DNA of 44,394 nt, taken from positions 1 through 44,394 of the forward strand of contig JAWANM010000004.1 in assembly GCA_038895375.1 (NCBI GenBank). Reading direction: 5' to 3'. The DNA is from Candidatus Pacearchaeota archaeon. Lineage in GTDB: Archaea > Nanobdellota > Nanobdellia > Pacearchaeales > UBA284. Below the pieces are notes generated by a model. That model did no database searches and was not told the origin of the DNA. It saw nothing but the letters and a program-made list of their open reading frames with translations. This document shows positions 3,011 through 41,346 of the stretch, one piece after another (positions within the stretch are counted from its first letter, which is position 1; each line of letters begins with the position of its first letter). Position numbers and translations under genes: made by a program.

Positions 3011-4531
3011 TTAGAACCGCCTCATCAATTCAAAATCTTCTTTTGATACGCCTTTTATAATCCAAAGAGCAAAGAAATAGACAAGAACAGCTGCTATGAT
3101 CATTAAAATTCCAGTCAGTATGTTAAGATTCACGAAATAATCAAAAGCAAAAAGAAAAGCAAGCACGATTGCTGAAGCTAGCAAGGGTTTTGCTATTGAA
3201 GCTATATTTGCTTTTATCTTTAGCTTTTTTCTTGCCAGCACAGCAAGACCTGCCATGTTGCCATATCTAACAAGTAAAGTTGCGAAAGCAACAGCAACCA
3301 AGCCGTATTGAGGCGCTATCAAGAGGCCGGCTTTTATGAAAGCGTAATTTAAAATTATGTTGGCTATTGTCGCTATAATAATTAAAACAGCAGGAATTTT
3401 TGGCTTTTCTTTTGCTTGAAATAAAGCTGCATAGACAGGAGAAAAAGCCGATTCGATGACGAGCAAGCTAAGCAACGCAGAAGTCAGTGTTATCGCTAGC
3501 TCGTATTGCACTGGCACATAAGCCTGACCATAAATAATTTTAATTGCAGGTACAATAGCATAAGCCAAGCCTATGGCTGCGGGAATTGCAATTAAAGCGG
3601 TATAATGAAAAACTTTTTTAAAGCCTCTTTCGATACGGCTTTTTTCAAGTTGTGTAAAGACAGGCAATAGCACTGAGCCAAAAGCGACAAAGCTAGCAAC
3701 AGAGCCGACAATAGCGAAGATGGCATGATAAAAGCCAACAAACTCTGCTGGCAAAAATATACCTAGCATGAAAGTATCGACATGAACAAAAAAAATAAGA
3801 GAAATACTGCTAATGGTTAGCCAACTAAAAAAACCCAACAATCTTTTTTTCTCCTCAGCACTAAGCTCTTGTTTTTCGCCTTTAATCAAAAATCTGTATT
3901 TAAGAGAAAGTATAGAAAAAAGAAAAGCGCAAGAAATAGAAATGGCTATAGACAAAGCAATAAAAACACTTTCTACATTCTTGTAGAATGAGAAAAAAAT
4001 TAAAACCAATGCAATTCTCGAAACTTGAAAAATTATTTCAGTCAAAGCATTATACTTTACTTTTTGCACTGCAAAGAAAATAGAAGTTAAGAAACCTTGT
4101 AAAGATATGACAAACAAGTAAATAGCGCCGATTTGTAAAGGCAAGATAAGTGAACTTTTATTGAATATATAAATTGCAATTTGTTTAGCAAAGGAAAAAA
4201 GTAAAAAAGCAATTATTGCGGTCAAAAAGATTTTAAAATTGAATAAAAAAGCTATCCTTGCTCTTGCTTCTTTTTCTGCTTTCTTTTTCTTTAGCGATTC
4301 TGCAAGATATCTTATGAGCGTTGCATTAAGACCGAGATCTGTAAAAGTTGCGATCGTAAAAATAATTGTCAAAGCAAGATTATAGATACCGAAAAGCTCT
4401 GGAAAAAGAAATCTTGCAACAATGATTGTAAAAATCAAAGCACCTATTCTGCTTATCAAAGTTGTAAGAAAGTTATAAAATACATTCTTTAGAACTTTGT
4501 GCTTTAGATTGTTTTTTAAAATTTTTGTCAT
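3011..4531 (-). CDS. Polysaccharide biosynthesis/flippase protein (MOP/Wzx-like multi-pass membrane protein)
   Basis: 506-aa ORF, hydrophobic throughout with about 12-14 helices and an N-terminal pattern typical of oligosaccharide flippases. The call rests on family resemblance only. Confidence 0.7.
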   Translation of the reverse strand: MTKILKNNLKHKVLKNVFYNFLTTLISRIGALIFTIIVARFLFPELFGIYNLALTIIFTIATFTDLGLNATLIRYLAESLKKKKAEKEARARIAFLFNFKIFLTAIIAFLLFSFAKQIAIYIFNKSSLILPLQIGAIYLFVISLQGFLTSIFFAVQKVKYNALTEIIFQVSRIALVLIFFSFYKNVESVFIALSIAISISCAFLFSILSLKYRFLIKGEKQELSAEEKKRLLGFFSWLTISSISLIFFVHVDTFMLGIFLPAEFVGFYHAIFAIVGSVASFVAFGSVLLPVFTQLEKSRIERGFKKVFHYTALIAIPAAIGLAYAIVPAIKIIYGQAYVPVQYELAITLTSALLSLLVIESAFSPVYAALFQAKEKPKIPAVLIIIATIANIILNYAFIKAGLLIAPQYGLVAVAFATLLVRYGNMAGLAVLARKKLKIKANIASIAKPLLASAIVLAFLFAFDYFVNLNILTGILMIIAAVLVYFFALWIIKGVSKEDFELMRRF

Positions 4532-4548
4532 CTTGCTTTAATGCAGTT

Positions 4549-6267
4549 TTAATCTTTAACTACCATTTTTAAGATGTCTGCAAAAGCAGGCCTTGTTATT
4601 AAAACGCCTATTGTTATGCCTATAAGCGTAGTGACTGCGAAGCCCCTTAGCAAGCCAGCTCCTGCCCACATCAAAGGCAGCATTGCAACAAAAGTTGTTG
4701 CATAAGCTCCAAAAATTATGAAAAAAGCTCTTTTGATTCTTTCCTTAATGCTGTATTGACGCGATGTTCTGCTTTCATCGATCATAACGATTTGATCATC
4801 AACACCTGTTCCTATTGCTGCAATTATTCCGGCAATACTCGGCAAATCAAGATTCCATTTTATAAGAGCTGCTATGCCAAGAATGAGAAAAATTTCTGAA
4901 AAAAGAACTATGATTACAGGCACAAACAAAGCAAGTCTTTTATAACGTAAATAAATTATAAGCAAGACTCCAAAAAGTGCAGCAAAACTTGCTATAAAAA
5001 TGCTTTTCAAAAAATCTTTGCCTAAAACTGGAGAGACGCTATCGAGCTTCACTATTTCTAGCTTTACGGGCAAACTTCCTGTAATGAGAATCGTCTGTAG
5101 TTTTTTCATGCTTTCTTCCGCTTCTTTATAGGCTTCTTCTCTTGTTTTGCCAATACCAGAACCTGTAATTGCAACTTCTGTAGTTTCCTTACCTTTCAAA
5201 TCAGCATCGATGAAAAGTTTATCGACAAGTTTATCATCAAGATATAAGTCTAGAGTTTCGTTAAGATAACGCCTGCCTTCTGTTATGTTCTCCGAAAGTC
5301 TTGCTGTTATGCTTGCTTGCTTTTTCGCAGCTTCTGCACTCAAGTGAACTGCAAAATGAAATCTGCATGCAAAACCGTCTTGCACTTCAAAGCATTCTTT
5401 TATGAAAGCGCAAGATGCGTCGTTTCTGCACACAAAAGTTATGTCTTTTTTTCCTCCTTGGAAAACCGTTTCGTTGCCTATTTTTGCTTCAAATTTTCCT
5501 TGTTTTGATACAAGTTCTCTAAGCTCAGAAGGAGTGGCTCCTGCAACCTCTACAACCATGTAAGTTTCTCCTAAAATGTCTTGTGCTTTTCTTATATTAA
5601 CATCTTTTATGCCGTAAGTATTCAGCCTATAACCAACTGTTTCGATTAAGCTATCGAATTCTTGCTGTGTTATTTTTTCTTGCGGAACAACAAGAGCTCT
5701 AGAGCCACCCTGCAAGTCTAAGCCAGTGGTGATTCTTGTTTTAGGTATTTCGGCAAGCGTAAGACCAAGATCTTGTGACGTTAAGAAAACATACTCTTGC
5801 TTGTTTGTTCTTAAAGTTATTTTTACTTTCGGCTCGAGCTTTTGCTTAATTTCTTCAAAACTATTGCTCTCAATGCTATGATTGTTTATTTTTTTGACTT
5901 TCATTCCTTTTCTTAAGCCGGCCTCGAAAGCTTTTCCATACGCTTCTACTACTGTATCGTTTTCTAGAACAAAATCGAGAGTTTTTGATTCGTAAATGAA
6001 AGTTTTGTTCTCGGCCTCTACTATAAATTTTACCGGAGTTATATTTATTTTAGCTATAGCTTCATAATAATTTTGTAAATTCTCTATTTTTTGTCCGTTT
6101 ATTTCTTTCAAAATTTCGTTTTCTTTTATTCCTGCCATGGCCGAAGAGCTATTTTGAGCGACTTCTTTGATGAGTAGGCCTTTTGTGAAGGCAAGAGGAT
6201 TTATAATGACGAGAGTAAAAACTATAAGAAAAATTATCAACATCCAAATTCTCCATGTGAGTTTCAT
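4549..6267 (-). CDS. secD: Protein-export membrane protein SecD, with an extended extracytoplasmic N-terminal region
   Basis: 572-aa ORF. The C-terminal 6-TM SecD/SecF domain contains ...AAIGTGVDDQIVMIDE.... It sits immediately upstream of, and is co-oriented with, SecF. Confidence 0.85.
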   Translation of the reverse strand: MKLTWRIWMLIIFLIVFTLVIINPLAFTKGLLIKEVAQNSSSAMAGIKENEILKEINGQKIENLQNYYEAIAKINITPVKFIVEAENKTFIYESKTLDFVLENDTVVEAYGKAFEAGLRKGMKVKKINNHSIESNSFEEIKQKLEPKVKITLRTNKQEYVFLTSQDLGLTLAEIPKTRITTGLDLQGGSRALVVPQEKITQQEFDSLIETVGYRLNTYGIKDVNIRKAQDILGETYMVVEVAGATPSELRELVSKQGKFEAKIGNETVFQGGKKDITFVCRNDASCAFIKECFEVQDGFACRFHFAVHLSAEAAKKQASITARLSENITEGRRYLNETLDLYLDDKLVDKLFIDADLKGKETTEVAITGSGIGKTREEAYKEAEESMKKLQTILITGSLPVKLEIVKLDSVSPVLGKDFLKSIFIASFAALFGVLLIIYLRYKRLALFVPVIIVLFSEIFLILGIAALIKWNLDLPSIAGIIAAIGTGVDDQIVMIDESRTSRQYSIKERIKRAFFIIFGAYATTFVAMLPLMWAGAGLLRGFAVTTLIGITIGVLITRPAFADILKMVVKD

Positions 6268-13236: not shown

Positions 13237-13344
13237 TGCTCCCGGCAAGATTCGAACTTGCGACCTTCAGCTGGCTCCTGAGCTTTAGCTCTTAGGAGGT
13301 TCAGCCATCGAGTCTGCTGCTCTATCCAGCTGAGCTACGGGAGC
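13237..13344 (-). tRNA. tRNA-like gene with a 34-nt intervening sequence; isotype not resolvable by hand
   Basis: Perfect acceptor (GCTCCCG/CGGGAGC, discriminator A), D arm (GCTC-AGCTGGATA-GAGC), variable loop AGGTC and T arm (GCAAG-TTCGAAT-CTTGC). 51 nt lie where 17 are expected. See finding. Confidence 0.6.
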
Positions 13345-13943: not shown

Positions 13944-14540
13944 ATGAATTTTGCAATTTTTCAAAAAGAAAAAATTAAGGCTCTTTCAAAAAAAGACAAA
14001 AGCAGTAAAAAAACATTGGACGAAAAAATAAAAAGTTTGTGCGACAAAATCAACTCGATGAAAGAATACTACACTACTTCTTCTTGCTCTGGAAGAATTA
14101 TCTTGATTAAAGATTCTTCAAAGAAGAAGAAAAATTTAATTTTGTTTAGAAGCCACAACAAAGTGCGATTTGCTGAAATTAAAAAAGTTTTAGAGAAAAT
14201 TAAAAAAAGAAATAAAAATGTTAATTTCAAACAAGAAAGCTGTATTCTGCATGTTGTGTGTTCGAACATCAAAAATGCTCAGATGCTTGTTGATAAAGCA
14301 AGATTTGCGGGATGGAAAAGAAGCGGAATAATCGCTTCAAGAAAACGTGTTGTTTGCGAACTAGTTTCAACAGAGCACATAGAAATGCCTATAATTCGCA
14401 AAGGAAGAATACTTGTAAACGATTCTTTTCTTAAAATACTTATCGAAGAGGCAAACAGAAAACTAGAAAGAAGTTGGAAAAAAATAAAGAAACTAGAAAA
14501 GTTATGCGGGAGACAGGATTCGAACCTGCGTAGGCACTAA
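13944..14540 (+). CDS. taw3: tRNA wybutosine-synthesizing protein 3 homologue (Taw3/TYW3 family methyltransferase)
   Basis: 198 aa with the family signature YYTTSSCSGRIIL. The last 36 nt of the ORF run antisense into tRNA-Leu (the tail ...CGRQDSNLRRH is tRNA sequence), so the C-terminal few residues are uncertain. Confidence 0.75.
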   Translation: MNFAIFQKEKIKALSKKDKSSKKTLDEKIKSLCDKINSMKEYYTTSSCSGRIILIKDSSKKKKNLILFRSHNKVRFAEIKKVLEKIKKRNKNVNFKQESCILHVVCSNIKNAQMLVDKARFAGWKRSGIIASRKRVVCELVSTEHIEMPIIRKGRILVNDSFLKILIEEANRKLERSWKKIKKLEKLCGRQDSNLRRH

Positions 14541-14588
14541 GCCACGTGGTCTTGAGCCACGCCCGTTTGACCGCTCCGGCACTCCCGC
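14505..14588 (-). tRNA. tRNA-Leu (anticodon CAA), class II
   Basis: Acceptor GCGGGAG/CTCCCGC with A73. D arm CCG-GAGCGGTCAAA-CGG, anticodon arm CGTGG-CTCAAGA-CCACG, long variable arm TGGCTTAGTGCCTAC, T arm GCAGG-TTCGAAT-CCTGT. A TATA-like ATTTATAA lies about 28 nt upstream. Confidence 0.9.
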
Positions 14589-14677
14589 GCTAATAACTAA
14601 AAGCATTGTGGCTTATAAATTTTTAGAAATAAAAAATGAAAAATCCCTAGTAAGTGTTGAAGTAAGCGTTGAGAAAA

Positions 14678-14767
14678 GAAGACAGTAAGAATCTAGGTGT
14701 TCTTCCGAAGAAGAACATCAGTCAGCACCGAAGTGCTAAACTGAAACCCTAGATTATTCCTGTCTTC
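14678..14767 (-). ncRNA. Unclassified 90-nt structured RNA (three-way junction, two cUUCGg tetraloops)
   Basis: The minus strand reads GAAGACAG-GAAT-AATCTAGG-GTT-[TCAGT-TT-AGCAC-TTCG-GTGCT-G-ACTGA]-TG-[TTCTTC-TTCG-GAAGAA]-CA-CCTAGATT-CTTA-CTGTCTTC. All stems are perfectly complementary. A TATA box lies upstream and TTTT follows immediately downstream. No ORF is present. Confidence 0.55.
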
Positions 14768-14788
14768 AAAAAAGAGAAGTTTACTATG

Positions 14789-14796
14789 TATATAAA
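14789..14796 (-). promoter_or_regulatory. Archaeal TATA box (TTTATATA) with a purine-rich BRE-like flank, positioned for the 90-nt RNA
   Basis: The minus strand reads CGAAAGA-TTTATATA. Twenty-one nt then separate it from the first base of the outer stem at 14767, which places the box centre near -26. Confidence 0.45.
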
Positions 14797-14814
14797 TCTT
14801 TCGTTAAAGCAAAC

Positions 14815-14930
<116 letters not shown>

Positions 14931-19990: not shown

Positions 19991-20086
19991 TGCGGGAGAC
20001 AGGATTCGAACCTGTGCAGGCACTAAGCCATACGGTTTCCACCATAGGCCTTAGCCGTACCCGTTTGACCGCTCCGGCACTCCCGC
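19991..20086 (-). tRNA. tRNA-Leu (class II) with a 12-nt intron; apparent anticodon AAG
   Basis: Acceptor, D arm, variable arm and T arm are nearly identical to the tRNA-Leu at 14505..14588. The anticodon stem TACGG/CCGTA encloses 19 nt (CTAAGG-CCTATGGTGGAA-A). Removing 12 nt at the canonical 37/38 site (plus-strand 20037..20048) leaves the loop CTAAGGA. Confidence 0.8.
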
Positions 20087-23077: not shown

Positions 23078-23337
23078 TTTTTTATCTTTATTGGTTTTAA
23101 ATGTGCTGTGGTTGTTATTATTCTCTTAACGACTTTGCCATTTAAAAACTTCACTACATAAGCCCTGCCTTGTTTTTTTTCTATTGTGCCTATCTTGCCA
23201 TGAAATCTTTCTGGGAATTTTCCTTTTGCTTCTGAAACATCAAGAACCAAGGCTACTTTATCGCCAGGTTGGTAACAATGAAAATACTGGCTAAGTCTTT
23301 TTTTTCCTTTTTCTCTTACTCGCTTCCTCGATTTCAT
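23074..23337 (-). CDS. rpl21e: 50S ribosomal protein L21e (eL21)
   Basis: MKSRKRVREKGKKRLSQYFHCYQPGDKVALVLD...FHGKIGTIEKKQGRAYVVKF. Confidence 0.85.
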   Translation of the reverse strand: MKSRKRVREKGKKRLSQYFHCYQPGDKVALVLDVSEAKGKFPERFHGKIGTIEKKQGRAYVVKFLNGKVVKRIITTTAHLKPIKIKK

Positions 23338-23639
23338 TTTTTAAATTTATGCTTTACTTCGACAAGCAACTTGTCAATTAATTTATCTAGTGCTTTATAA
23401 AGATTAGCGTCCTCGGCTTTTGCCGAAATAGCTTTTCCTGTACTGAAAAACAAATCTGCTCTTAGCTCGTGAATTATTCTCGTTAAATGTTTATATTCGT
23501 GCTTGTGTTGTTTTAGTTCTATACTCAAAAGTTGATATTTAATATTTATTTTCTCTATCCTTCTTGCAATAATTTTCTTAACAGCTTCTAGCTCGCTTGC
23601 GTCAAGGTTCTCGAAACCGATTAGCCTTAAATCTGGCAT
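23334..23639 (-). CDS. HPF/RaiA (ribosomal S30AE, ribosome-hibernation factor)-like protein
   Basis: 101 aa. It aligns by eye along its full length with short bacterial HPF (beta-alpha-beta-beta-beta-alpha). The C-terminal TGKAISAKAEDANLYKALDKLIDKLLVEVKHKFKK compares with E. coli HPF (from memory) [34 protein letters not shown]. It overlaps the L21e start by 4 nt. Confidence 0.6.
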   Translation of the reverse strand: MPDLRLIGFENLDASELEAVKKIIARRIEKINIKYQLLSIELKQHKHEYKHLTRIIHELRADLFFSTGKAISAKAEDANLYKALDKLIDKLLVEVKHKFKK

Positions 23640-23690: not shown

Positions 23691-24386
23691 TCAACTAAAC
23701 AATCTCTTCAGAGTGTCCAAAGTATAAAGGATTGTTGCAAGAGCTTGGTTCTTGGATGGTTCAAAAATTTTCTGCCTTTTGTGTACGCTATGAATCCTGA
23801 GCTGATTTATTAAAGAAATTTGATTGCTCAGTCCGGGATCAAGCTCGATGCCTTTTTCTTTTACTCTTCTTATAAGATTTCCGAGACCTATGCCGGGAGC
23901 TTCTTCAAGCAAATCGCGATTTGTCAATTCAAAATACTTCCTATGAAAAGCGATTTCTAGTATCTTAGCGCACAGCATCATTACGCTTCTATAACAACCA
24001 TGCTTCAAACAAACTTCTGCTTCTGAAAAATTCTTCTTTACTTCAGATTCTATTTCTTTGGGTAATGAAGGCAAAACAAAAGTGAATGCTTCATGATTCT
24101 GCTTTTCTTTTGCTTCTATAGCCGAAAGAATTGAAAAAAGAATTTCTCTAGCTTTAAACAAATTTTCGTGATTCTTTTTTTCAAGAAGCTTGGAAACCTC
24201 TTCTAGCTCACGAAAGTCTGGAAAGCTCTTTTTAACTTTTAAAAACAAATTATCTATTTCTTTGGCATAATATTCTTTTTCTCTTTGTCTGTAACTAAGA
24301 GGCTTTCTTATTTCTTGTTTTTCAACAAAAATTTCTTTATCGATTACAAAATCTATTTTTGAAAGCAGTTCATGAATTTCCTTCAT
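23691..24386 (-). CDS. Coiled-coil protein with a C-terminal DUF4145-like domain
   Basis: 231 aa. The C-terminal half (FSEAEVCLKHGCYRSVMMLCAKILEIAFHRKY...LGNLIRRVKEKG...LINQLRIHSVHKRQ...QALATILYTLDTLKRLF) has the DUF4145 helix pattern, including the (R/N)x(S/A)xH motif. It overlaps the upstream nuclease gene by 17 nt. Confidence 0.5.
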   Translation of the reverse strand: MKEIHELLSKIDFVIDKEIFVEKQEIRKPLSYRQREKEYYAKEIDNLFLKVKKSFPDFRELEEVSKLLEKKNHENLFKAREILFSILSAIEAKEKQNHEAFTFVLPSLPKEIESEVKKNFSEAEVCLKHGCYRSVMMLCAKILEIAFHRKYFELTNRDLLEEAPGIGLGNLIRRVKEKGIELDPGLSNQISLINQLRIHSVHKRQKIFEPSKNQALATILYTLDTLKRLFS

Positions 24387-25023
24387 TTTTCAGCTTTTGC
24401 TCTTCAATTTTTTCGCATTCTTCGATATAAGGACAATAATCGCAGCGCCAGTCTTCTAAATCCTTTGGAATTTCTGGTACAATGTTTTTATCGACAAATT
24501 CTTTAAGCTTGTTGAATTCCGAAAATATTTTTTTAACAATGTTTTCGTCATAATTTATAAGAAATTCCTTGAGTTCTTGTGTATCTTTGTTTTCATAAAT
24601 AAGAATTCCTTTTTTAATTTTAAAAAAATACAAATAAAGCTGAAGTTGTTTTACATGGTCCTCGTCTGGAGATTCTTTTTTAAATCTTGCTGCATTGACG
24701 CTCTTTATTTCAACAACATAGGGCTCGCCCTTGATATTTATTATAGCGTCTGCTCTTCCATGAATTAGCTCGTTGTTCGGAATTTCGATTTCTACAGCAT
24801 TGACAAGCCCTAAAGAAAATAAAACGCCAAGGATGCGCATATGCGTATGGTCTCCGTGTTCAAAAATTCTCATAACTCTAGCATCTATTTCTTTCTTAGG
24901 ATAATTCTTAAGCGAGAACCATATAGCTCTAGGACATTTACCAGCATCTGAAACAAAAAAAGTTGTCTTTTCTTTTTCTGTTTTTTTTGTCTTGTAAAAT
25001 TCATCGATCAGTTCCTTGATCAT
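24370..25023 (-). CDS. Cas4-like PD-(D/E)XK nuclease with a 4-Cys Fe-S cluster (RecB/DUF83 family), stand-alone
   Basis: An N-terminal Cys (DAGKCPRAIW), D-x(n)-E-x-K (GRADAII...VVEIKS), the QxxxY motif (VKQLQLYLY), and the C-terminal CDYCPYIEEC. No cas genes or CRISPR array are nearby. Confidence 0.75.
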   Translation of the reverse strand: MIKELIDEFYKTKKTEKEKTTFFVSDAGKCPRAIWFSLKNYPKKEIDARVMRIFEHGDHTHMRILGVLFSLGLVNAVEIEIPNNELIHGRADAIINIKGEPYVVEIKSVNAARFKKESPDEDHVKQLQLYLYFFKIKKGILIYENKDTQELKEFLINYDENIVKKIFSEFNKLKEFVDKNIVPEIPKDLEDWRCDYCPYIEECEKIEEQKLKNEGNS

Positions 25024-25064
25024 AAATAAACAATATACTCAAGGTTTTTTAGCTTTTCTCATTC

Positions 25065-25412
25065 TTATTCATAATAACCGCTCTCTCTTAAATGCCGAAG
25101 ATATTCTTTATCGATAATGCTTCTACGACCAGTACGGCCAAAACGGCCAGCACGGCCAAAAGAGTTTGTATAAAACGACTTTTCTTCTTCGATTTTTCTT
25201 TTTGATTCGTCAAGAAAATGCGTGTAAAGAGAAATGTAAACAAGTCTCCACATCAAATCTTGAGATTGAACTTTTGACAAATTTTTATAAAAAACTTCAG
25301 ATGCTTTAAGCTCTAGTTCTGAAATACAACTGAAGAATTCTTTATGCTTTTTACAAAAATCTTGTACTGCTTTTCTAACGGTTTCGTTATAAAACTCTTC
25401 CTGCGGAAGCAT
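25065..25412 (-). CDS. Hypothetical protein (115 aa) with an Arg/Gly-rich segment
   Basis: ORF only. Contains GRAGRFGRTGRR. It is the first gene of the apparent three-gene unit with the Cas4-like and DUF4145 genes. Confidence 0.4.
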   Translation of the reverse strand: MLPQEEFYNETVRKAVQDFCKKHKEFFSCISELELKASEVFYKNLSKVQSQDLMWRLVYISLYTHFLDESKRKIEEEKSFYTNSFGRAGRFGRTGRRSIIDKEYLRHLRESGYYE

Positions 25413-25497
25413 TTTCGATTTTTTTAAAAATATATTTAGTGCCGTTGGAAGGTAGTATATTATTTATTTTTTGACTTATCAGTATAATAACAATTCC

Positions 25498-27360
25498 TTA
25501 TTTTTTAAATACTAGTATATCTTCTACATAGATTTTTCCTTTATCGGCTTTTGAAAGACCATGCTGTATGACATTCGCTAATTCGAACCCTTCAGATTTA
25601 CCTAAATCAGCTATTATTGGTGAAGTATCTATTCTTTGTTCCTTCCCATTTATGCTCCAAGTATGGTATTTGCTGACAACCATTAGATATAATTTATTTT
25701 TTTTCAATACCCTATAGCACTCTCTAAAAGATAATTTCATCATTTTTAGATAATTTTCGACGATAAAGGCTTTCATAGATCTTTTAGATTTCTTTAACAT
25801 TTCAATAAGTCTCATGCTGGATGCAGGTAGTTGTATGGTTTCGTAAATTTTCATAAAAGATGGCAAACCTTTATTGTTCCTAAAACAAGAATCATAAAAA
25901 TCTTTTGTGGATCCGTATTTTAAATCATCATCAAAACCTAAAATTATGATTGAGACTTTGTTGTTACCTACGTAATCAAGAGCATCAAAATATGGTGGTG
26001 ACGTTAAAATACCGTCTATGGACGAATCTTTTAAAAAAGACATATCAGTAGAATCTGCTCTGATTATATCTACATTACCTTTAGAGAGATTAATATTAAG
26101 TTTCTCAGCCAGTCTGTAAGTAGCATAAAGTGTCAAATACCTATCCTCTACATATGTCTTAAAAGACGTTAAAAAATCTAACAAACGTTTTTTTTCACTA
26201 TACTCTACTATTTTTTGACTTAAAAGAACCAAAAGAAAATTTTTAATTTTTTCTTCTTTTATTTTTTCTATTTCATTTTTCAAAGAAATTATAGCAGGGA
26301 TATGTGGAGAAATATTTTCATATAGCTGTGTTCCAATTGTGTGTGCTTTTATTTTTTCTTTTATATTTGTTATTTCTTTATCTAGTTCGTTATAATCGAT
26401 TGTTTTTGGCAAATTAAAAATTTTTATTATTTCTTCTCTTAGTTTTTTGATGTTGTAATCTAATCTGCATTTTACGTTAGAAATAAGTTGACCGATTTTT
26501 AAAATCTCGACACCGATGACATTTATTCCCATTGCCGGAGCGTCTGCTATGAATGCTCCTGAGCCTACAAAAGGGTCAAGAATTGTGTCGCCTTCGTTAA
26601 CTCTTAAAAGATTTATTAGAGCTCTAGATATTCTAGGGTCGCCTTTGCCTTTGTATTTATGTAAATAATGCAGGAATGGTTTTCTTAAGTCAGTAGATGT
26701 CCAATCGATAAAATCTCCAATATGGGTTTTGCCTAGCCCAAAATGAGGAGAGCGATAGTGTCCTGTTTGAAGGTGGGATATCATTTCATCTAATCCTTGA
26801 TCAATTCCTTTTTCTTTTTCTTCAAAATATTCTAACCAGTTGCTATTGTTTCTAGGTTTAAACACAACGGTGGGTAATTTTTTCACCTCAGATGCGTATT
26901 CAAAAAGAGTATGAACAGGAATTATTCTGACTGTAATTAATTTTTTTGATTCCATCTCTTTTAAAAATACTTGAATGTAAGGATTTATGAAATTGTTAGT
27001 TGGTACGTATTTAATTCCTAAGGAGTTAAAAAGATGATGCAAATTGTTTCCATCAACTTCGCTAATAGCATAAATTTCTCTAAAAAATGTGGCTTTTTTT
27101 GCTATATTAATTATATCACAAGATTCCACTTTTGCTAAATATCCTTGTACCTCTCCTAAATATAATAACCTTGTGATTAAATGTATTACTTCATCGTCTA
27201 ACTGATTAAATGGCCTACTTTTAAAAATAGATGGGATGGTCTTAATGGGTTCTACTTTCACACCTAATATGCTCTCTATTTCATGCTTCGCAAAATGAGC
27301 TTCGTCAGGATCTCTTAAGTCAAATTTAATTTTTGCTATGATGAATATGTCATATACCAT
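25498..27360 (-). CDS. SAM-dependent DNA methyltransferase (N4-C/N6-A type) with an atypical architecture
   Basis: 620 aa. SAM motif I is ILDPFVGSGAFIADAPAMGINVIGVEI at about aa 255-285. Catalytic motif IV is ILTSPPYFDALDY at about aa 450. The two are separated by a roughly 170-aa Lys/Glu-rich helical insert. A roughly 250-aa N-terminal domain of unknown type precedes them. Confidence 0.75.
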   Translation of the reverse strand: MVYDIFIIAKIKFDLRDPDEAHFAKHEIESILGVKVEPIKTIPSIFKSRPFNQLDDEVIHLITRLLYLGEVQGYLAKVESCDIINIAKKATFFREIYAISEVDGNNLHHLFNSLGIKYVPTNNFINPYIQVFLKEMESKKLITVRIIPVHTLFEYASEVKKLPTVVFKPRNNSNWLEYFEEKEKGIDQGLDEMISHLQTGHYRSPHFGLGKTHIGDFIDWTSTDLRKPFLHYLHKYKGKGDPRISRALINLLRVNEGDTILDPFVGSGAFIADAPAMGINVIGVEILKIGQLISNVKCRLDYNIKKLREEIIKIFNLPKTIDYNELDKEITNIKEKIKAHTIGTQLYENISPHIPAIISLKNEIEKIKEEKIKNFLLVLLSQKIVEYSEKKRLLDFLTSFKTYVEDRYLTLYATYRLAEKLNINLSKGNVDIIRADSTDMSFLKDSSIDGILTSPPYFDALDYVGNNKVSIIILGFDDDLKYGSTKDFYDSCFRNNKGLPSFMKIYETIQLPASSMRLIEMLKKSKRSMKAFIVENYLKMMKLSFRECYRVLKKNKLYLMVVSKYHTWSINGKEQRIDTSPIIADLGKSEGFELANVIQHGLSKADKGKIYVEDILVFKK

Positions 27361-27361
27361 C

Positions 27362-28216
27362 TTAGACGCCTTTATCTATGTTGAAAAGATCGCAAGGTTT
27401 TATTTTAAATTGCAATTTAGTGGGGTCTGGCGTACCGCCTTTTCTTTGCATTGTTATTCTACCAATGTATAGATTGCCTTGAGGTGAAATTTTAACGTCA
27501 CCTTGACCAAAGAAATTCATCACAGTATTTATGTCTTTCAATACCCACGCAGTAGTATCTTTACTCTTGTCATATTTTGTAACTAACATCCAATCAGCTG
27601 AGAATCCGCCTCGACCTTTTAAAATGTCGCTTACTATTAGAATTTTATTTCTTTTAAAAAAATCTACTATTTTATCTCTTAGTATATCATTAAGCTCGTC
27701 TAAAAATACCCTCTTTTTATCTCTAAGATTTTGAATATTTACTTTTAATTTACCTGGATATTTCGCTGGCGGGATTTCTCCTGTAAATAACTTTAGCCCT
27801 ATCGCTATTTCGTCATCAAAGTTCCACATTTCTCTATAAGAATCCACCCATCGTTTATCTACCTGGTTATAGTCTGCATCAGAGTTAGCTTTCTTCAAAG
27901 ACAAATTTTCGATTTTTAACATATCGTTGATCTTAATTAAAATTCGTATTTGAACTTGAATATCTGCTTTTTTAAATTTCATCAAAGCCTCATACTCGTT
28001 TTCGTTAAATCCGAACTCTTTGACTTGCGTCCTTTTAATTCGAGCAGGAATTTGTATGGCTTTAACATTTTGGATATCCTTAATTTTGTATCCCATTATT
28101 GAAAGCCATATCTTTGCCTCTTCATCCATCTTCCATTTATTAAATTTTTCGCATACTGCTCTTTCATTTGCAAATCCTCCCCTGGCGACTCTGGAACCAA
28201 AATCAAAATTATACAT
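27362..28216 (-). CDS. Putative type II restriction endonuclease (weak MspI/HinP1I-like pattern)
   Basis: The track ORF extends to 28309, but Met32 (ATG at 28216) starts 1 nt after the stop of the upstream remnant. Candidate catalytic region KADIQVQI...IENLSLKK. The C-terminal ...GGTPDPTKLQFK recalls the QFK tail of MspI/HinP1I (from memory). Its stop lies 1 nt from the methyltransferase start. Confidence 0.45.
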   Translation of the reverse strand: MYNFDFGSRVARGGFANERAVCEKFNKWKMDEEAKIWLSIMGYKIKDIQNVKAIQIPARIKRTQVKEFGFNENEYEALMKFKKADIQVQIRILIKINDMLKIENLSLKKANSDADYNQVDKRWVDSYREMWNFDDEIAIGLKLFTGEIPPAKYPGKLKVNIQNLRDKKRVFLDELNDILRDKIVDFFKRNKILIVSDILKGRGGFSADWMLVTKYDKSKDTTAWVLKDINTVMNFFGQGDVKISPQGNLYIGRITMQRKGGTPDPTKLQFKIKPCDLFNIDKGV

Positions 28217-28217
28217 T

Positions 28218-28652
28218 TTATTTTTCGCCTTTTTGTTTGTGTTTGCTTTTCTTTTCAAGTAGCGCTCTATATCTCTTCTTAAATCTATTAATAATAATTT
28301 CCACCTCAAAATTCTCCTTCCCGAAAATCTCGTCCATTAAACTTCCATCAGGATTTTTTAATTTCCCGGCTTCTTTCCAAAGCAATAGTTCTTTAAGAAC
28401 TTGTAAATTATTTCCGAAAATAATCATGTTATACCACCCGTCGTCTTTTATCTGACCAAATGTTTTAACTCTCCGAAGAGAAACAGCCATAGTATCTGTT
28501 ATTATATCAATACCTCTTTCTTTTCCAAAATAAACTAATTCGGTCTTTTGTTTTCCTTCAAATAAAAACCATTTGAATTCCTCTGGTAATGGTTTACCTT
28601 CTTTCAATCTTTCAACAATGAATTTTATTTGTTCGTCTGCTCCTTCTTTCAT
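28218..28652 (-). pseudogene. Remnant of a Mod-type (type III/IIG) adenine methyltransferase lacking the catalytic core
   Basis: 144 aa. GWYNMIIFGNNLQVLKELL matches the usual N.LI.GDNL..LK.L segment that precedes DPPY. It runs almost directly into ...GSLMDEIFGKENF, a segment that normally lies well downstream of the core. No DPPY or FxGxG motif is present. Confidence 0.55.
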
Positions 28653-28720
28653 TTTCTCATATCAAAAATAATTAATATTTTGCCTTTTTAATTCTTTATT
28701 CTTTATTTGCTTTTATAAAA

Positions 28721-29533
28721 TTACAGCTCATCCAAAGGATTTTTAACTTTTTTTAGTTCTTCTGTTGTTAGATGAGTATAAAGCTGTGTGGTGCTTAATG
28801 ATTCGTGCCCTAGCAAGGCTTGAATTTTTCTTATATCTGTTCCCGAGTCAAGCAAATGAGTAGCAAAAGAATGTCTCAAGCAGTGTGGTGTTACTTTCTT
28901 GTTGATTCCTGCTTTCTTTGCTGCAAGCTTTATTATTTTTTGTATGTTCCTTGTTGTCAATGGCTTTTCTCTTGACAAAAGATATTGTCTTCCAGGTTCT
29001 TTAACATATGGTTCAAGCTCTTTGATTAATTTCTCTGGCAGTATGAAAATTCTATCTTTTTTACCTTTTCCCTTGCGAATCCAACCTATTCTTTCTTGTA
29101 AGTCGATATCGTTGCACTTCAAGTTTACAAGTTCGCTTACGCGCATTCCTGTCGAGTATAATAACTTAATGATAAGCTTTGATTTTTTTGTTTCTGCACT
29201 TTCGATAAGCTTCTTAACTTCCTCTTTTGTTAAAACTTCCGGCAATTTTTTTTCTTTTTTCGGCAACTTTAGGGTTATGGGTTTTTTTAAAATTTCGGAA
29301 AAAAAGAACTTCAAAGAGGCTGCTGCTAAAGCGATGGTGCTCTGTGACTTTTCAAGCAAAGAAGCAAGAAAATTCTTTGCATCTTGCTCATTAAGCTCTT
29401 CTATTTTTTTGTTCGATGTTGTAAGAAATTTTCTTATGAACCATGAGTAATTGCGAATAGTAAAATTACTAGATCCTCTTAACTTAAGCTCTGCTCTTAG
29501 CTCGTTCAATATAGCTTCAAATTGGTTTTCCAT
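28721..29533 (-). CDS. Tyrosine recombinase/integrase (XerA/XerC/D-like)
   Basis: 270 aa. N-terminal SAM-like core-binding domain, and a catalytic domain with R...(TGMRVSEL), HCLRHSFATHLL, LGHESLSTTQLYTH (R-H-R-H/Y pattern). Confidence 0.9.
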   Translation of the reverse strand: MENQFEAILNELRAELKLRGSSNFTIRNYSWFIRKFLTTSNKKIEELNEQDAKNFLASLLEKSQSTIALAAASLKFFFSEILKKPITLKLPKKEKKLPEVLTKEEVKKLIESAETKKSKLIIKLLYSTGMRVSELVNLKCNDIDLQERIGWIRKGKGKKDRIFILPEKLIKELEPYVKEPGRQYLLSREKPLTTRNIQKIIKLAAKKAGINKKVTPHCLRHSFATHLLDSGTDIRKIQALLGHESLSTTQLYTHLTTEELKKVKNPLDEL

Positions 29534-38575: not shown

Positions 38576-39814
38576 ATGGCGCAAGAAAAAGAGGAAATTA
38601 AAGACATAGAAGAGATTTTCAATTCTTTCATTAGACAAAGCATTTTTAAGAATAAGATGGCTTTGCAAGCAAACTACACGCCAGAAACAATTCCGCATAG
38701 AGAAAAACAAATTGCTCAAGTGGCTTCTATACTTGCTCCAAGCTTAAGATTGGAAAGACCTAGTAACTTATTTATTTACGGTTTAACAGGTACTGGCAAG
38801 ACTTTGGTTGTCCAATATGTTAGAAACCAGTTGCTTAAGAAAGCAAAAGAGCTCGATGTTCCTTTGCTCATTCCTTATGTAAATTGTAAGCTCAAAAAAG
38901 TAGCAGATACTGAATATAGAATTCTTGCTGAATTGATCAATAAACTAGGTGAAAAAGTTCCGGCAACCGGCTTGCCAACAGATCAACTTTATAGGAAGCT
39001 TATCGAGATAATCGATACGCAAAAGCAAATCGTTATAGTTATTTTTGATGAAATAGATCAAGCAGTTAAAAAAATCGGAGACGAGTTTTTATACAATTTT
39101 ACAAGGATCAATACAGAGCTTACTAAAGCACAGATAACTGTTGTTGGTTTATCGAACGATTTGAAATTTTTAGACACTTTAGATCCTAGGGTTAAGAGCT
39201 CTTTGAGTGAAGAGGAAATTTTATTTCCTCCATACAATGCTTTGCAGCTTCAAGATATTTTAAGACAGAGAGCAAAAGAAGCGTTCAAGCCGAATGTGCT
39301 TGCAGAAGGCGTTATCGAAAAGTGTGCGGCTCTTGCTGCAAGAGAACATGGTGACGCCAGAAGAGCTTTGGATCTGTTGAGAATAGCTGGAGAACTTGTA
39401 GAAAGAGACAATAAAACCATAATAAATTTAGAGTATGTTGATAAAGCTAAAGAAAAGATAGAGACAGATAAACTTTTGCTTGCTGTAGAAACACAACCTA
39501 GACAATTTCAATTAACTTTTCTTGCAATAATTCAATTACTAAAGAAAGTAAAACGCGAAAGAAAAGAAGATAAAGTTTTTACAGGAGACGTTTATAACTT
39601 GTATTGTGAGCTATGCAAAAAAACGAAAACAGAAATATTAACACAAAGAAGGATAAGCGATATTATTGCAGAATTCGACATGCAAGGATTGATTAATGCT
39701 AGAGTTATGAGTAAAGGTCGTTATGGAAGGACACGAGAAATAAGATTGAATTTGCCGGAACCTTTGATAGAAAAGATCAATCAAATTTTACTTAAATCTT
39801 TGAATCAATCATGA
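38576..39814 (+). CDS. cdc6: Orc1/Cdc6 replication initiator
   Basis: 412 aa. PHREKQI, Walker A GLTGTGKT, Walker B IVIFDEID, sensor regions (GDARRALDLLR), and a C-terminal winged helix. Confidence 0.9.
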   Translation: MAQEKEEIKDIEEIFNSFIRQSIFKNKMALQANYTPETIPHREKQIAQVASILAPSLRLERPSNLFIYGLTGTGKTLVVQYVRNQLLKKAKELDVPLLIPYVNCKLKKVADTEYRILAELINKLGEKVPATGLPTDQLYRKLIEIIDTQKQIVIVIFDEIDQAVKKIGDEFLYNFTRINTELTKAQITVVGLSNDLKFLDTLDPRVKSSLSEEEILFPPYNALQLQDILRQRAKEAFKPNVLAEGVIEKCAALAAREHGDARRALDLLRIAGELVERDNKTIINLEYVDKAKEKIETDKLLLAVETQPRQFQLTFLAIIQLLKKVKRERKEDKVFTGDVYNLYCELCKKTKTEILTQRRISDIIAEFDMQGLINARVMSKGRYGRTREIRLNLPEPLIEKINQILLKSLNQS

Positions 39815-41346
39815 TGAAACTCGTTCAAGAATTAATGGCTAAGGGCTATCTTATAGAGTCCGATGTTTTGAAGACAGAATTTTTCAAAGAGATTGAAAAA
39901 ATTGATGAAAACTTGCTTGTTGAGCTTATTTTAGAATCGAAACCACCAAAGATAATAACCAAAGAGTTTTTGCTCAGCAAAATACTTTTTTTTATCGAGA
40001 GGTTGAAAAATTATAAAAATGAAGAAATTTTGAAATTGACTTCTCTTTTGTTGGAGAAGTATCCAAAAGAAGAAAAAAAGCAAGAACCTGCAAAAGAGTT
40101 TTCTTCTAGAGGTGTTGCTATAGTTAAAGAATACAATTTTAAAACAAAAAAACTCGAAGTCGAGGATTTTGTTAATTATTTTAGAGAAAGGTATAAATTT
40201 TTTAAAAGTATTTTACAAGAAAGAAATCTAGAAGGTTTAACGAGTATAGGTAAGATTTTTGGCAATAGAAAAAATATAACGATCATCGGGCTTGTTTATG
40301 AAAAAAGATATACAAAAAATAAAAATATCATTCTTGAACTTGAAGATCTTACCGGAAGAATTAGTGTTATTGTCAATAAAGAAAAAAAAGAGCTTTTCGA
40401 GAAAGCAAGCTCTGTGGTTTTGGACGAGGTTATAGCGGTGACCGGTTCCAGTAGCGGAGAATTGTTTTTTGCCAACGATATTATTTTTCCAGATATTGCT
40501 ATAAACAAATTGAAATATTCTCCAAAGGACGAGTATGCTGTCTTCATTGCAGACTTGCATGTAGGTTCTGACAAGTTTCTCGAAGAGAATTTTTTGAAAT
40601 TCATTTCATGGATAAATGGAGAAATAGGAAACGAAGAGCAGAAAGAAATTGCAAAAAAAGTAAAATATCTTTTTATAGTTGGCGATCTTGTAGACAGCAT
40701 AGGTGTATATCCTACACAGGAGAAAGAATTGAAAATCAAAGATCTTTACGAGCAATACAGATATTGCGCAGAATTGCTTAGAAAAATAAGAAAAGATATT
40801 GCTATAATTATATGTCCTGGAAACCACGATGCTGTAAGGCTTCTCGAGCCACAACCAAAATTCGATCCAGAAATTGCAAAAGAACTTTTTGAACTGGAAA
40901 ATGTTATTCTAACGACAAATCCGGCTTTAGTTAATATAGGAAAAACAGAAAATTTCGAAGGTTTCAATGTTTTGATTTATCATGGCAGATCTTTGGATTA
41001 CTACATGGATCAAGTAGATTGTTTGAGAATGGCAAATGCAAAACTTTCGCCAAGTCTTGTTTTGAATTTTTTACTCAAGAAAAGACATTTAGGACCTAGT
41101 TATGGAAGCACAACTTTTTTGCCGGAAGAGGACGTTCTTGCCTTGAAAACAGTTCCCGACATTGTTGTTACAGCACACATTCATAGAAGCGCGATTTTGA
41201 ATTACAATGGCATTCTTGCTATTTCTTGCTCATGCTTTCAATCCAAGACAGCATATCAAGAAAAACTAGGGCACGAGCCAGATTTTTGTAAAGTCTGTTT
41301 ATTCAACTTGAAAACAAGAAAAATAAATCTGCTGGACTTTGGTTGA
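39811..41346 (+). CDS. polD1: DNA polymerase II (PolD) small subunit DP1
   Basis: 511 aa. OB-fold region, then a calcineurin-like phosphoesterase domain (FIADLHVGS, VGDLVD, PGNHD, YHGRS, TAHIH). Overlaps the cdc6 stop by 4 nt. Confidence 0.9.
   Translation: MMKLVQELMAKGYLIESDVLKTEFFKEIEKIDENLLVELILESKPPKIITKEFLLSKILFFIERLKNYKNEEILKLTSLLLEKYPKEEKKQEPAKEFSSRGVAIVKEYNFKTKKLEVEDFVNYFRERYKFFKSILQERNLEGLTSIGKIFGNRKNITIIGLVYEKRYTKNKNIILELEDLTGRISVIVNKEKKELFEKASSVVLDEVIAVTGSSSGELFFANDIIFPDIAINKLKYSPKDEYAVFIADLHVGSDKFLEENFLKFISWINGEIGNEEQKEIAKKVKYLFIVGDLVDSIGVYPTQEKELKIKDLYEQYRYCAELLRKIRKDIAIIICPGNHDAVRLLEPQPKFDPEIAKELFELENVILTTNPALVNIGKTENFEGFNVLIYHGRSLDYYMDQVDCLRMANAKLSPSLVLNFLLKKRHLGPSYGSTTFLPEEDVLALKTVPDIVVTAHIHRSAILNYNGILAISCSCFQSKTAYQEKLGHEPDFCKVCLFNLKTRKINLLDFG

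Follow-up and report, generated by a model that had tools for sequence, protein, structure and literature searches.

We describe an element on the minus strand (positions 14678-14767) of a 44,394-nucleotide (nt) stretch of contig JAWANM010000004.1 from a Candidatus Pacearchaeota archaeon; this whole stretch is referred to as the window. The element is very probably a real, conserved and independently transcribed small RNA gene, as indicated by its conserved promoter, its synteny and its covarying helices. On sequence evidence it constitutes an RNA family absent from Rfam, whose promoter is clear, whose structure covaries and whose phylogenetic range is defined. Moreover, the stem that closes the element can be read as a bulge-helix-bulge (BHB), and we consider the chances about even that the transcript is processed through this motif into a circular RNA of ~67 nt.

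Read on the minus strand, the element runs GAAGACAG-GAAU-AAU-CUAGG-GUU-[UCAGUU U AGCAC UUCG GUGCU GACUGA]-U-[GUUCUUC UUCG GAAGAAC]-A-CCUAG-AUUC-UUA-CUGUCUUC, followed by UUUU (square brackets enclose the two arms). RNAfold returns a Y-shape with a minimum free energy (MFE) of -43.9 kcal/mol, compared with -19.4 +/- 2.9 kcal/mol for 200 dinucleotide shuffles (z = -8.6), of which none (0/200) matched the real fold. The initial annotation had described an outer helix of 8 base pairs (bp), a 4x4 near-paired internal loop and a further 8 bp, opening into a three-way junction with two arms. We found this outer helix, the junction and both arms on the minus strand; if the helix is taken as continuous, the segment between the two 8-bp helices is a near-paired GAAU / CUUA and the second helix is AAUCUAGG / CCUAGAUU. 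Also as annotated, both loops of the window's element have the C(UUCG)G form only when read on the minus strand; in homologues this form is common rather than invariant, with CUUGU in arm 2 of locus L095 and UUAG and UUU in L137 (UUU in arm 2). The absence of coding potential was borne out, as none of the window's open reading frames (ORFs) of at least 40 amino acids (aa) overlaps the element, and neither a search allowing up to 3 mismatches nor repeat finding revealed a second copy in the 44-kb window. The plus strand folds nearly as well (z = -8.4), as any near-perfect set of hairpins must, and the strand was therefore assigned by the tetraloop reading, the promoter and the counts of G·U versus A·C cells in homologues. 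The latter number 22 and 5, respectively, which argues that the minus strand is the RNA strand.

Homologues were collected by several routes: an RpoN scan of the genome collection (L014), Rpr2 homologues (L095), two DNA-pattern scans of GTDB species genomes, one scan of JGI metagenomes, a covariance model (R1; L019 and L020) and look-ups of RpoN homologues that were then scanned with R1 (L143, L144 and L146). The 18 homologues obtained, of which 17 are distinct in the stem region, all lie in metagenome-assembled genomes (MAGs) labelled as Pacearchaeota or Woesearchaeota, including the complete genome Pace33H (CP061211). The element is thus kept at 18 loci, the outcome that the conservation check proposed at the outset had looked for. 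These sequences form two groups, a main clade (n = 13) and a divergent clade (n = 5). In the divergent clade arm 1 is a short stem, CAGC/GCUG, bearing two C(UUCG)G hairpins, so that the junction becomes four-way, and each RNA carries two or three UUCG tetraloops. When Rpr2 was used as a probe of the genome collection it matched only distant Thermoprotei/Thermococci loci, and the arm-1 sequence had no match in viral contigs.

Within the species itself, 13 contigs of uncultured Candidatus Pacearchaeota (DPANN), taken from NCBI MAGs and Logan assemblies, encode an identical copy of the neighbouring RpoN protein. Ten of these same-species loci (L004-L013) match the element at 100% and are therefore uninformative on covariation, whilst the adjoining spacer shows single nucleotide polymorphisms (SNPs) and a 26-nt indel. 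The indel is an insertion (CTTTTCCTTGCTTTCTTAATAATTTT...) directly after 5S (window ~14805-14813; ~3690-3720 in L005, L012 and L013), and L008 has a scaffold gap, a run of N, where it lies. The SNPs among these strains fall in the spacer before tRNA-Leu, and the element itself does not vary.

Covariation, the second check proposed in the initial annotation, was found as compensatory changes in every helix. In an alignment of the 13 closer sequences (A4) the three-way-junction structure is paired in 96.6% of cells and 13/34 pairs are changed on both sides, values that 0/500 shuffles reach; the same structure slid by 1-3 columns pairs only 40-49%. All 8 pairs of the outer helix have changes on both sides (97-99% paired, length 8-9 bp), its variants including GAAGACAG/CUGUCUUC, GAAAGUAG/CUACUUUC, AAGAGCGA/UCGCUCUU and GGGGCAG/UUGCCCC. 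The inner helix (4-5 bp, 96% paired) changes from CUAGG:CCUAG to CAGUG:CACUG in the divergent clade, with double changes at 3 pairs. Arm 1 covaries at alignment columns 31-47, 33-46 and 34-45, and in arm 2 columns 55-71 read UA in 6 sequences, AU in 4 and GU in 2. Conservation is highest midway along the closing stem and in the junction core (G-AUUU(A)-CAG ... CUG-A ... A), whereas the hairpin tips are variable. A mature RNA that acts as a protein-binding scaffold would fit this distribution, of a conserved junction and BHB region with variable hairpin tips, better than a base-pairing or antisense guide.

The promoter is conserved too. A TATA box precedes the element, at a conserved distance, in 17/17 homologues with upstream sequence (17 of the total 18). 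It takes the form TTTATATA, TTTAAATA, CTTAAATA or TTTAAAAA, with its start 26-35 nt before alignment column 1 in 14/14 homologues; it is also visible upstream of L143, L144 and L146. Most homologues have a CGAAA-type B recognition element (BRE) before the TATA box, and a T-rich tail of varying strength lies 3′ of the stem. The consensus-like TATA box with its purine-rich flank, and the TTTT directly after the helix, had both been pointed out beforehand in the window and are present there as TTTATATA with CGAAAGA and as the T-tract at 14674-14677. Transcription is predicted to start at or just before 14767. A scan for sigma-70 promoters and intrinsic terminators found nothing, its models not being applicable to archaea.

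The usual order of genes is 5S rRNA, on the opposite strand with a divergent promoter, then the element, then tRNA-Leu(CAA). The tRNA gene lies on the same strand 47-88 nt downstream in 15 homologues, with its own TATA box, and also follows the element in L143 and L144; the same locus is seen in 17/18 homologues. The remaining one, L146, has the element with neither 5S nor tRNA-Leu as a neighbour. In that contig (JAIYKO010000028) the element lies at 4401-4512, apart from both genes, and a 101-aa ORF called across it (4395-4700) is probably spurious; a LAGLIDADG-type ORF starts ~330 nt downstream. In every relative that has 5S beside the element, 5S is on the opposite strand; it is on the same strand only in the window species. 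Therefore, the element is not a 5S trailer. The same-strand cluster of 5S, element and tRNA-Leu that the initial annotation had stressed does exist in the window, but it is peculiar to this species, where 5S looks to have been inverted locally (~150-200 bp) in a way that would have left the element promoter intact. Conversely, four relatives (L028, L039, L049 and L097) have 5S and tRNA-Leu(CAA) only 59-125 nt apart, and in these neither R1 nor a strict BHB scan upstream of tRNA-Leu gave a match to the element; L094, whose Rpr2 is 80% identical, has 5S without the element beside it. Given its own TATA box, the opposite-strand 5S, the separate TATA box of tRNA-Leu, the stand-alone copy in L146 and the relatives that lack it, the element is best seen as a lineage-specific, separately transcribed unit confined to one subclade of Pacearchaeota-like DPANN archaea, and the conserved BRE/TATA and synteny support the earlier suggestion of a dedicated transcription unit for a stable small RNA.

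Proximity to the RNase P protein gene rnp4 had also been thought worthy of attention. The start of the gene, Rpr2/Rpp21, is indeed ~250 nt from the element, but this is not specific: the RpoN-Rpr2-5S neighbourhood is found with or without the element, and we rejected a link between the two because the same synteny occurs in genomes that lack it.

A search of Rfam 15 at gathering thresholds gave no match for the element, and at E <= 10 only chance-level matches of 11-19.5 bits were obtained, against thresholds of 42-245. Among these sau-63 scored highest (19.5 bits; gathering score 100). Likewise, the homologues L020 and L129 had no significant match. Known classes were also considered individually. 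A tRNA, including split, permuted and armless forms, was rejected as neither ARAGORN nor Rfam called one, there are three helices and no 7-nt T-loop, and the junction loop of the divergent clade has no U33. As for a C/D box RNA, CUGA occurs in arm 1 of 10/13 sequences but is base-paired, and a UGAUG-like string is present only in the window sequence. An H/ACA RNA was rejected on the U-tract, rather than ACA, after the helix and on the lack of a tandem G·A motif. Signal recognition particle (SRP) RNA, including circularly permuted forms and the S domain, is at odds with the UUCG/UUAG/UUU loops and plain helical arms, and no SRP model matched; RNase P RNA is excluded by the element's far too small size and its lack of CR-I/CR-V. 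Hammerhead, k-turn, loop E and a 5S paralogue were each checked against the aligned sequences and rejected. The initial failure to assign the element to any known RNA class is therefore upheld by these family tests.

The conserved middle of the closing stem admits a register other than the continuous helix. A BHB is defined as two 3-nt bulges flanking a 4-bp helix (PMC6379350; PMC4731332). When the 3′ strand is shifted by 3 nt, GAAU pairs with AUUC, and AAU and UUA are left bulged (Table 1). The order of parts is then h-H-B1-h′ on the 5′ strand and h′-H′-B2-h on the 3′ strand, which, from tRNA numbering and the BHB definition (PMC6379350), matches archaeal tRNA introns at 37/38 in topology. 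The central helix, the two 3-nt bulges and the flanking helices h and h′ of BHB (hBHBh′) substrates are all present. What had been labelled a 4x4 near-paired internal loop may thus be better read as a BHB, a change that alters the predicted mature product.

This register is conserved across the homologues. The central helix varies from GAAU:AUUC in the window to GGAU:AUCC in most relatives, GAGU:ACUU, GGGG:ACUC and similar. Among the 17 distinct stems its first three positions are paired in 17/17 (position 1, GC 14 and GU 3; position 2, GC 11, AU 3 and GU 3; position 3, AU 12 and GC 5) and position 4 in 12/17 (UA 12, G·A 4, A·A 1), the five sequences with a non-standard fourth pair being of the 'relaxed' BHB type. 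Compensatory changes are seen at two positions: an A at position 2 is always opposite U, and position 3 becomes G-C in the divergent clade, a fully compensatory change. Moreover, both bulges are 3 nt long in all 18 homologues, lie on opposite strands and are each 3′ of their central-helix strand. Their bases vary freely, as expected of unpaired bases, B1 being A[A/G/C]U (UAU in L138) and B2 being UUU, UUA, UCU, GUA, UGU or GUG. In the rival continuous-helix register, the five specific pairs form in 11/17, 16/17, 13/17, 11/17 and 17/17 stems with no double change, and the resulting form differs by clade, the main clade having a 2x2 loop and the divergent clade alternating 1x1 mismatches. Judging from the aligned stems, the BHB is the only pairing scheme common to both clades.

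Several observations weigh against the BHB. The nearest-neighbour model disfavours it: imposing the BHB on the fold costs 0.8-6.9 kcal/mol relative to the MFE at 37 C, typically 4-5, and 1-4 kcal/mol at 70 C. RNAalifold, given the 13 closer sequences, picks the continuous helix with the 2x2 loop. The fourth central pair is G·A in 4/5 divergent-clade sequences and A·A in L138, which forms a perfect BHB only in a register shifted by one nt. G·U pairs let the BHB slide by 1-2 nt in several sequences, so that the cleavage sites are not uniquely defined, and only ~2-3 independent lineages account for the compensatory changes seen in the central helix. Nor is the motif rare: a loose BHB descriptor (6+4+4 bp, G·U allowed) gives ~25 matches per shuffled 44-kb window and 35 in the real window, five of which are the element itself. 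After this control the descriptor match was rejected as stand-alone evidence, since by itself it is not significant, and the case for the BHB rests on conservation. Finally, the stem region (GGAUAAUCUAGG / CUAGAUCCUUU) is conserved in sequence beyond what the tRNA-splicing endonuclease (EndA) requires, which hints at another, sequence-specific partner.

One alternative is that the element is a linear, unprocessed stable RNA of ~90 nt whose primary transcript itself acts as a ribonucleoprotein (RNP) scaffold. In that case the irregular stretch midway along the stem would be a conserved protein-binding site that differs in form between the clades: a 2x2 loop between G·U pairs in the main clade, alternating 1x1 mismatches in the divergent one. 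We take this explanation seriously, whilst regarding it as somewhat doubtful. It accords with the continuous helix being both the MFE and the RNAalifold consensus, with a stem conserved beyond the needs of a plain EndA substrate, and with a helix bracketed exactly by promoter and terminator. However, no continuous pairing scheme fits both clades, its specific pairs forming in only 11-17 of 17 stems with no compensatory change, whilst three central positions of the BHB pair in 17/17 with double changes; and the middle of the stem resembles no known protein-binding motif, having neither the tandem G·A of a k-turn nor a loop E.

All readings other than the BHB-processed circle and the linear scaffold are, even when pooled, unlikely. 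That the element is a disrupted (permuted, split or fragmented) gene of a known RNA, for example a BHB-released rRNA fragment or an unusual piece of tRNA, might be suspected from its position next to 5S rRNA and tRNA genes, from the resemblance of promoter, processing stem and BHB to a miniature pre-rRNA unit, and from the suspicion that DPANN genomes hold unrecognised disrupted tRNA genes (PMC5829648). We judge it very improbable, given that no rRNA, tRNA, SRP or RNase P model matched (window at E <= 10, two homologues at E <= 5), that ARAGORN finds nothing at the element, that the circle would have only three helices in 67 nt and a 7-nt loop without U33 in the divergent clade, that hairpin number and sequence vary between clades unlike rRNA or tRNA cores, and that related genomes do without it. 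A cis-acting part of a 5S-tRNA transcript, be it a spacer, processing stem, terminator or insulator with no stable product, is a shade less credible again: the opposite-strand 5S of all relatives having 5S beside the element, the separate promoters of element and tRNA-Leu, the solitary element of L146 and the relatives with 5S and tRNA-Leu back to back without it all argue against this, although the three genes are co-oriented and close in the window and the T-tract is weak in some homologues. Least credible of all is the relic of a mobile element, a miniature inverted-repeat transposable element with 20-bp terminal inverted repeats. Near-perfect inverted termini and the folding of both strands would be expected of one, but there is one copy in 44 kb, the locus is the same in 17/18 homologues, the covariation is strand-specific (G·U 22 against A·C 5) and the promoter is conserved.

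If the BHB is processed, the pathway that we infer for transcript ends, fold adoption, cleavage and circularisation would run as follows. RNA polymerase would start ~25 nt downstream of the BRE/TATA, at or just before 14767, and stop in the T-tract after 14678 to give a precursor of ~90-95 nt. The ends of this precursor would pair and the closing stem take the hBHBh′ form, with the inner helix opening into the three-way junction. EndA would then cut after the second nt of each bulge, the sites being placed by the BHB definition (PMC6379350), to release a 67-nt RNA (14687-14753, minus strand), the 'intron', which the tRNA ligase RtcB would circularise. The resulting circle would have three hairpins, namely arm 1, arm 2 and CCUAG/CUAGG with the 7-nt loop AUUCUUU, whilst the two short 'exons' would be joined by RtcB into a minihairpin of ~25 nt. 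The predicted back-splice junction is ...CUAGAUUCUU|UCUAGGGUUU..., with k-mers CTAGATTCTTTCTAGGGTTT (window type) and CTAGATCCTTTCTAGGATTT (main clade), and the predicted exon-exon junction is ...GGAAUAA|ACUGUCUUC..., with k-mers GGAATAAACTGTCTTC (window) and, for example, GGATAATCTACTTTC.

Neither endA nor rtcB is encoded within the window. However, two tRNA genes in the window carry introns, so the organism must have splicing machinery. tRNA-Leu(AAG) (19991-20086, minus strand) has a 12-nt intron, CCTATGGTGGAA, exactly at 37/38 by comparison with an intron-less orthologue in L129; its BHB, assigned by hand, is of the relaxed type only, with 3/4 central pairs. tRNA-Arg(CCU) (13237-13344, minus strand) has ~33 extra nt relative to its intron-less orthologue, also in L129, and these probably represent more than one intron. 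Both genes were missed by ARAGORN and detected by Rfam.

The closest precedent for BHB-dependent circularisation of a small RNA that is neither tRNA nor rRNA is the permuted SRP RNA of Thermoproteus, in which leader and trailer form a BHB, a recombinant endonuclease cuts it and the mature form is circular (PMC4731332). It and the element are both stand-alone small-RNA genes of thermophile-associated archaea, with a TATA promoter and a leader/trailer BHB, the processing of the element being predicted. The Thermoproteus RNA differs in being ~300 nt long and recognisably SRP, with GNAR loops and helix-8 motifs, and in having its cleavage and circles shown experimentally, whereas the inner RNA of the element is 67 nt, has UUCG loops, belongs to no known family and has only predicted processing. 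The processing stems of archaeal pre-rRNA (16S/23S) likewise combine a promoter, a long stem formed by the flanks, a BHB and a structured inner RNA, and the element adjoins an rRNA gene; its cargo, however, measures 67 nt as against 1.5-3 kb and shows no similarity to rRNA, and its flanks span just 8-9 bp. Stable circular tRNA introns include archaeal intron circles, the C/D-box RNA in the tRNA-Trp intron and the metazoan tRNA intronic circular RNAs (tricRNAs). Like these, the element would be a small structured RNA excised at a BHB, identical in topology to that of a 37/38 intron, and circularised by RtcB. Unlike them, it has no host tRNA, its 'exons' are just a minihelix, it has its own promoter and terminator, and it lacks C/D boxes. 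In overall shape it is also similar to other three-way-junction RNAs (5S rRNA, Y RNA and the SRP S domain), with a Y-shape, a terminal closing helix, a length of ~90-120 nt and a U-rich 3′ end. It shows no sequence or covariance-model similarity to them, and is without the loop E and loop A of 5S, the Ro-binding bulged helix or the GNAR tetraloops of SRP RNA.

A literature search found no description of the element, nor any dedicated non-coding RNA for Pacearchaeota-type DPANN archaea. A Haloferax 5′ untranslated region is a non-tRNA substrate of the splicing endonuclease, besides rRNA processing stems (PMC7714728); DPANN endonucleases carry an insert (L3 loop) that is associated with more tRNA gene disruption (PMC5829648); and a paper on circular 23S rRNA mentions neither these lineages nor small RNAs (PMC12918454). 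A free-standing BHB-flanked gene with minimal 'exons' is not reported in the literature searched. If the BHB reading is true, the range of archaeal tRNA-splicing substrates, known to comprise tRNA introns, rRNA stems, one or two mRNAs and the permuted SRP RNA, would grow by a free-standing gene delivering a small circular RNA, and the BHB with its UUCG-capped three-way junction would be a compact natural scaffold for making circular RNAs. We put forward, with slightly less than even confidence, that this may be the first dedicated archaeal gene solely making a small circular RNA: a host-less 'intron' with its own promoter, cut at a BHB and closed by RtcB, whose hyperstable 67-nt three-hairpin circle would act in genome-reduced DPANN archaea as part of an RNP specific to the lineage, possibly one related to the ribosome or to tRNA. 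Should the BHB prove to be misread, the element is still a new conserved small RNA in an understudied group. Its narrow distribution limits the lead.

Table 1. Coordinates of the element, its parts and its neighbours (window positions unless a locus is named).
Feature	Position	Strand	Basis or remark
Element	14678-14767	-	Sequence read directly and RNAfold
Outer helix h, 5′ strand GAAGACAG	14760-14767	-	Pairs with 14678-14685
Outer helix h, 3′ strand CUGUCUUC	14678-14685	-	Fold and covariation
Central helix H, 5′ strand GAAU	14756-14759	-	Pairs with AUUC
Central helix H, 3′ strand AUUC	14689-14692	-	Pairs with GAAU
Bulge B1, AAU	14753-14755	-	Predicted 5′ cleavage after second nt, between 14754 and 14753
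Bulge B2, UUA	14686-14688	-	Predicted 3′ cleavage after second nt, between 14687 and 14686
Inner helix h′, 5′ strand CUAGG	14748-14752	-	Pairs with CCUAG 14693-14697
Inner helix h′, 3′ strand CCUAG	14693-14697	-	Fold and covariation
Arm 1	14718-14744	-	6 bp (UCAGU..ACUGA), 1-nt bulge, 5 bp AGCAC/GUGCU, C(UUCG)G loop
Arm 2	14699-14716	-	7 bp GUUCUUC/GAAGAAC, C(UUCG)G loop
BRE-like purine-rich element CGAAAGA	14797-14803	-	Read directly
TATA box TTTATATA	14789-14796	-	Centre ~25 nt upstream of first paired base
T-tract TTTT	14674-14677	-	Likely archaeal terminator, directly 3′ of helix
5S rRNA gene (context)	14814-14930	-	Rfam RF00001, 87.5 bits
tRNA-Leu(CAA) gene (context)	14505-14588	-	Own TATA box 14612-14619
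Divergent-clade element, L019	1201-1310		Split arm 1
Divergent-clade element, L020	4729-4836		Split arm 1
Divergent-clade element, L143	3010-3119		Split arm 1
Divergent-clade element, L144	3272-3379		Split arm 1

Lastly, we noted several features of the neighbouring genes and of the remainder of the window. The adjoining tRNA-Leu(CAA) has an intron of variable length after the anticodon in L019, L020, L095, L131, L137, L138, L141 and L143, but not in the window species. In the window this tRNA gene is entered by 36 nt from the opposite strand by the ORF of TYW3 (wybutosine synthesis; 13944-14540, plus strand); either the overlap is true or the real stop or frame of the ORF differs. Further along, an apparent integrated mobile or defence island spans 24370-29533. 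It comprises genes for a Cas4/PD-(D/E)XK nuclease (24370-25023), for a large DNA methylase (25498-27360), for a restriction endonuclease of the R.HinP1I type (27362-28309) and for a tyrosine recombinase (28721-29533). Orc1/Cdc6 and, immediately downstream of it, a gene for a PolD DP1-like small subunit of DNA polymerase occupy 38576-41346, and a replication origin may be located nearby. Finally, a 101-aa ORF at 23334-23639 (minus strand), adjoining genes for a ribosomal protein and an RNA polymerase subunit, weakly resembles (E = 6e-6, 27 bits) the S30AE/HPF family of bacterial-type ribosome hibernation factors, which would be unusual in an archaeon if real.

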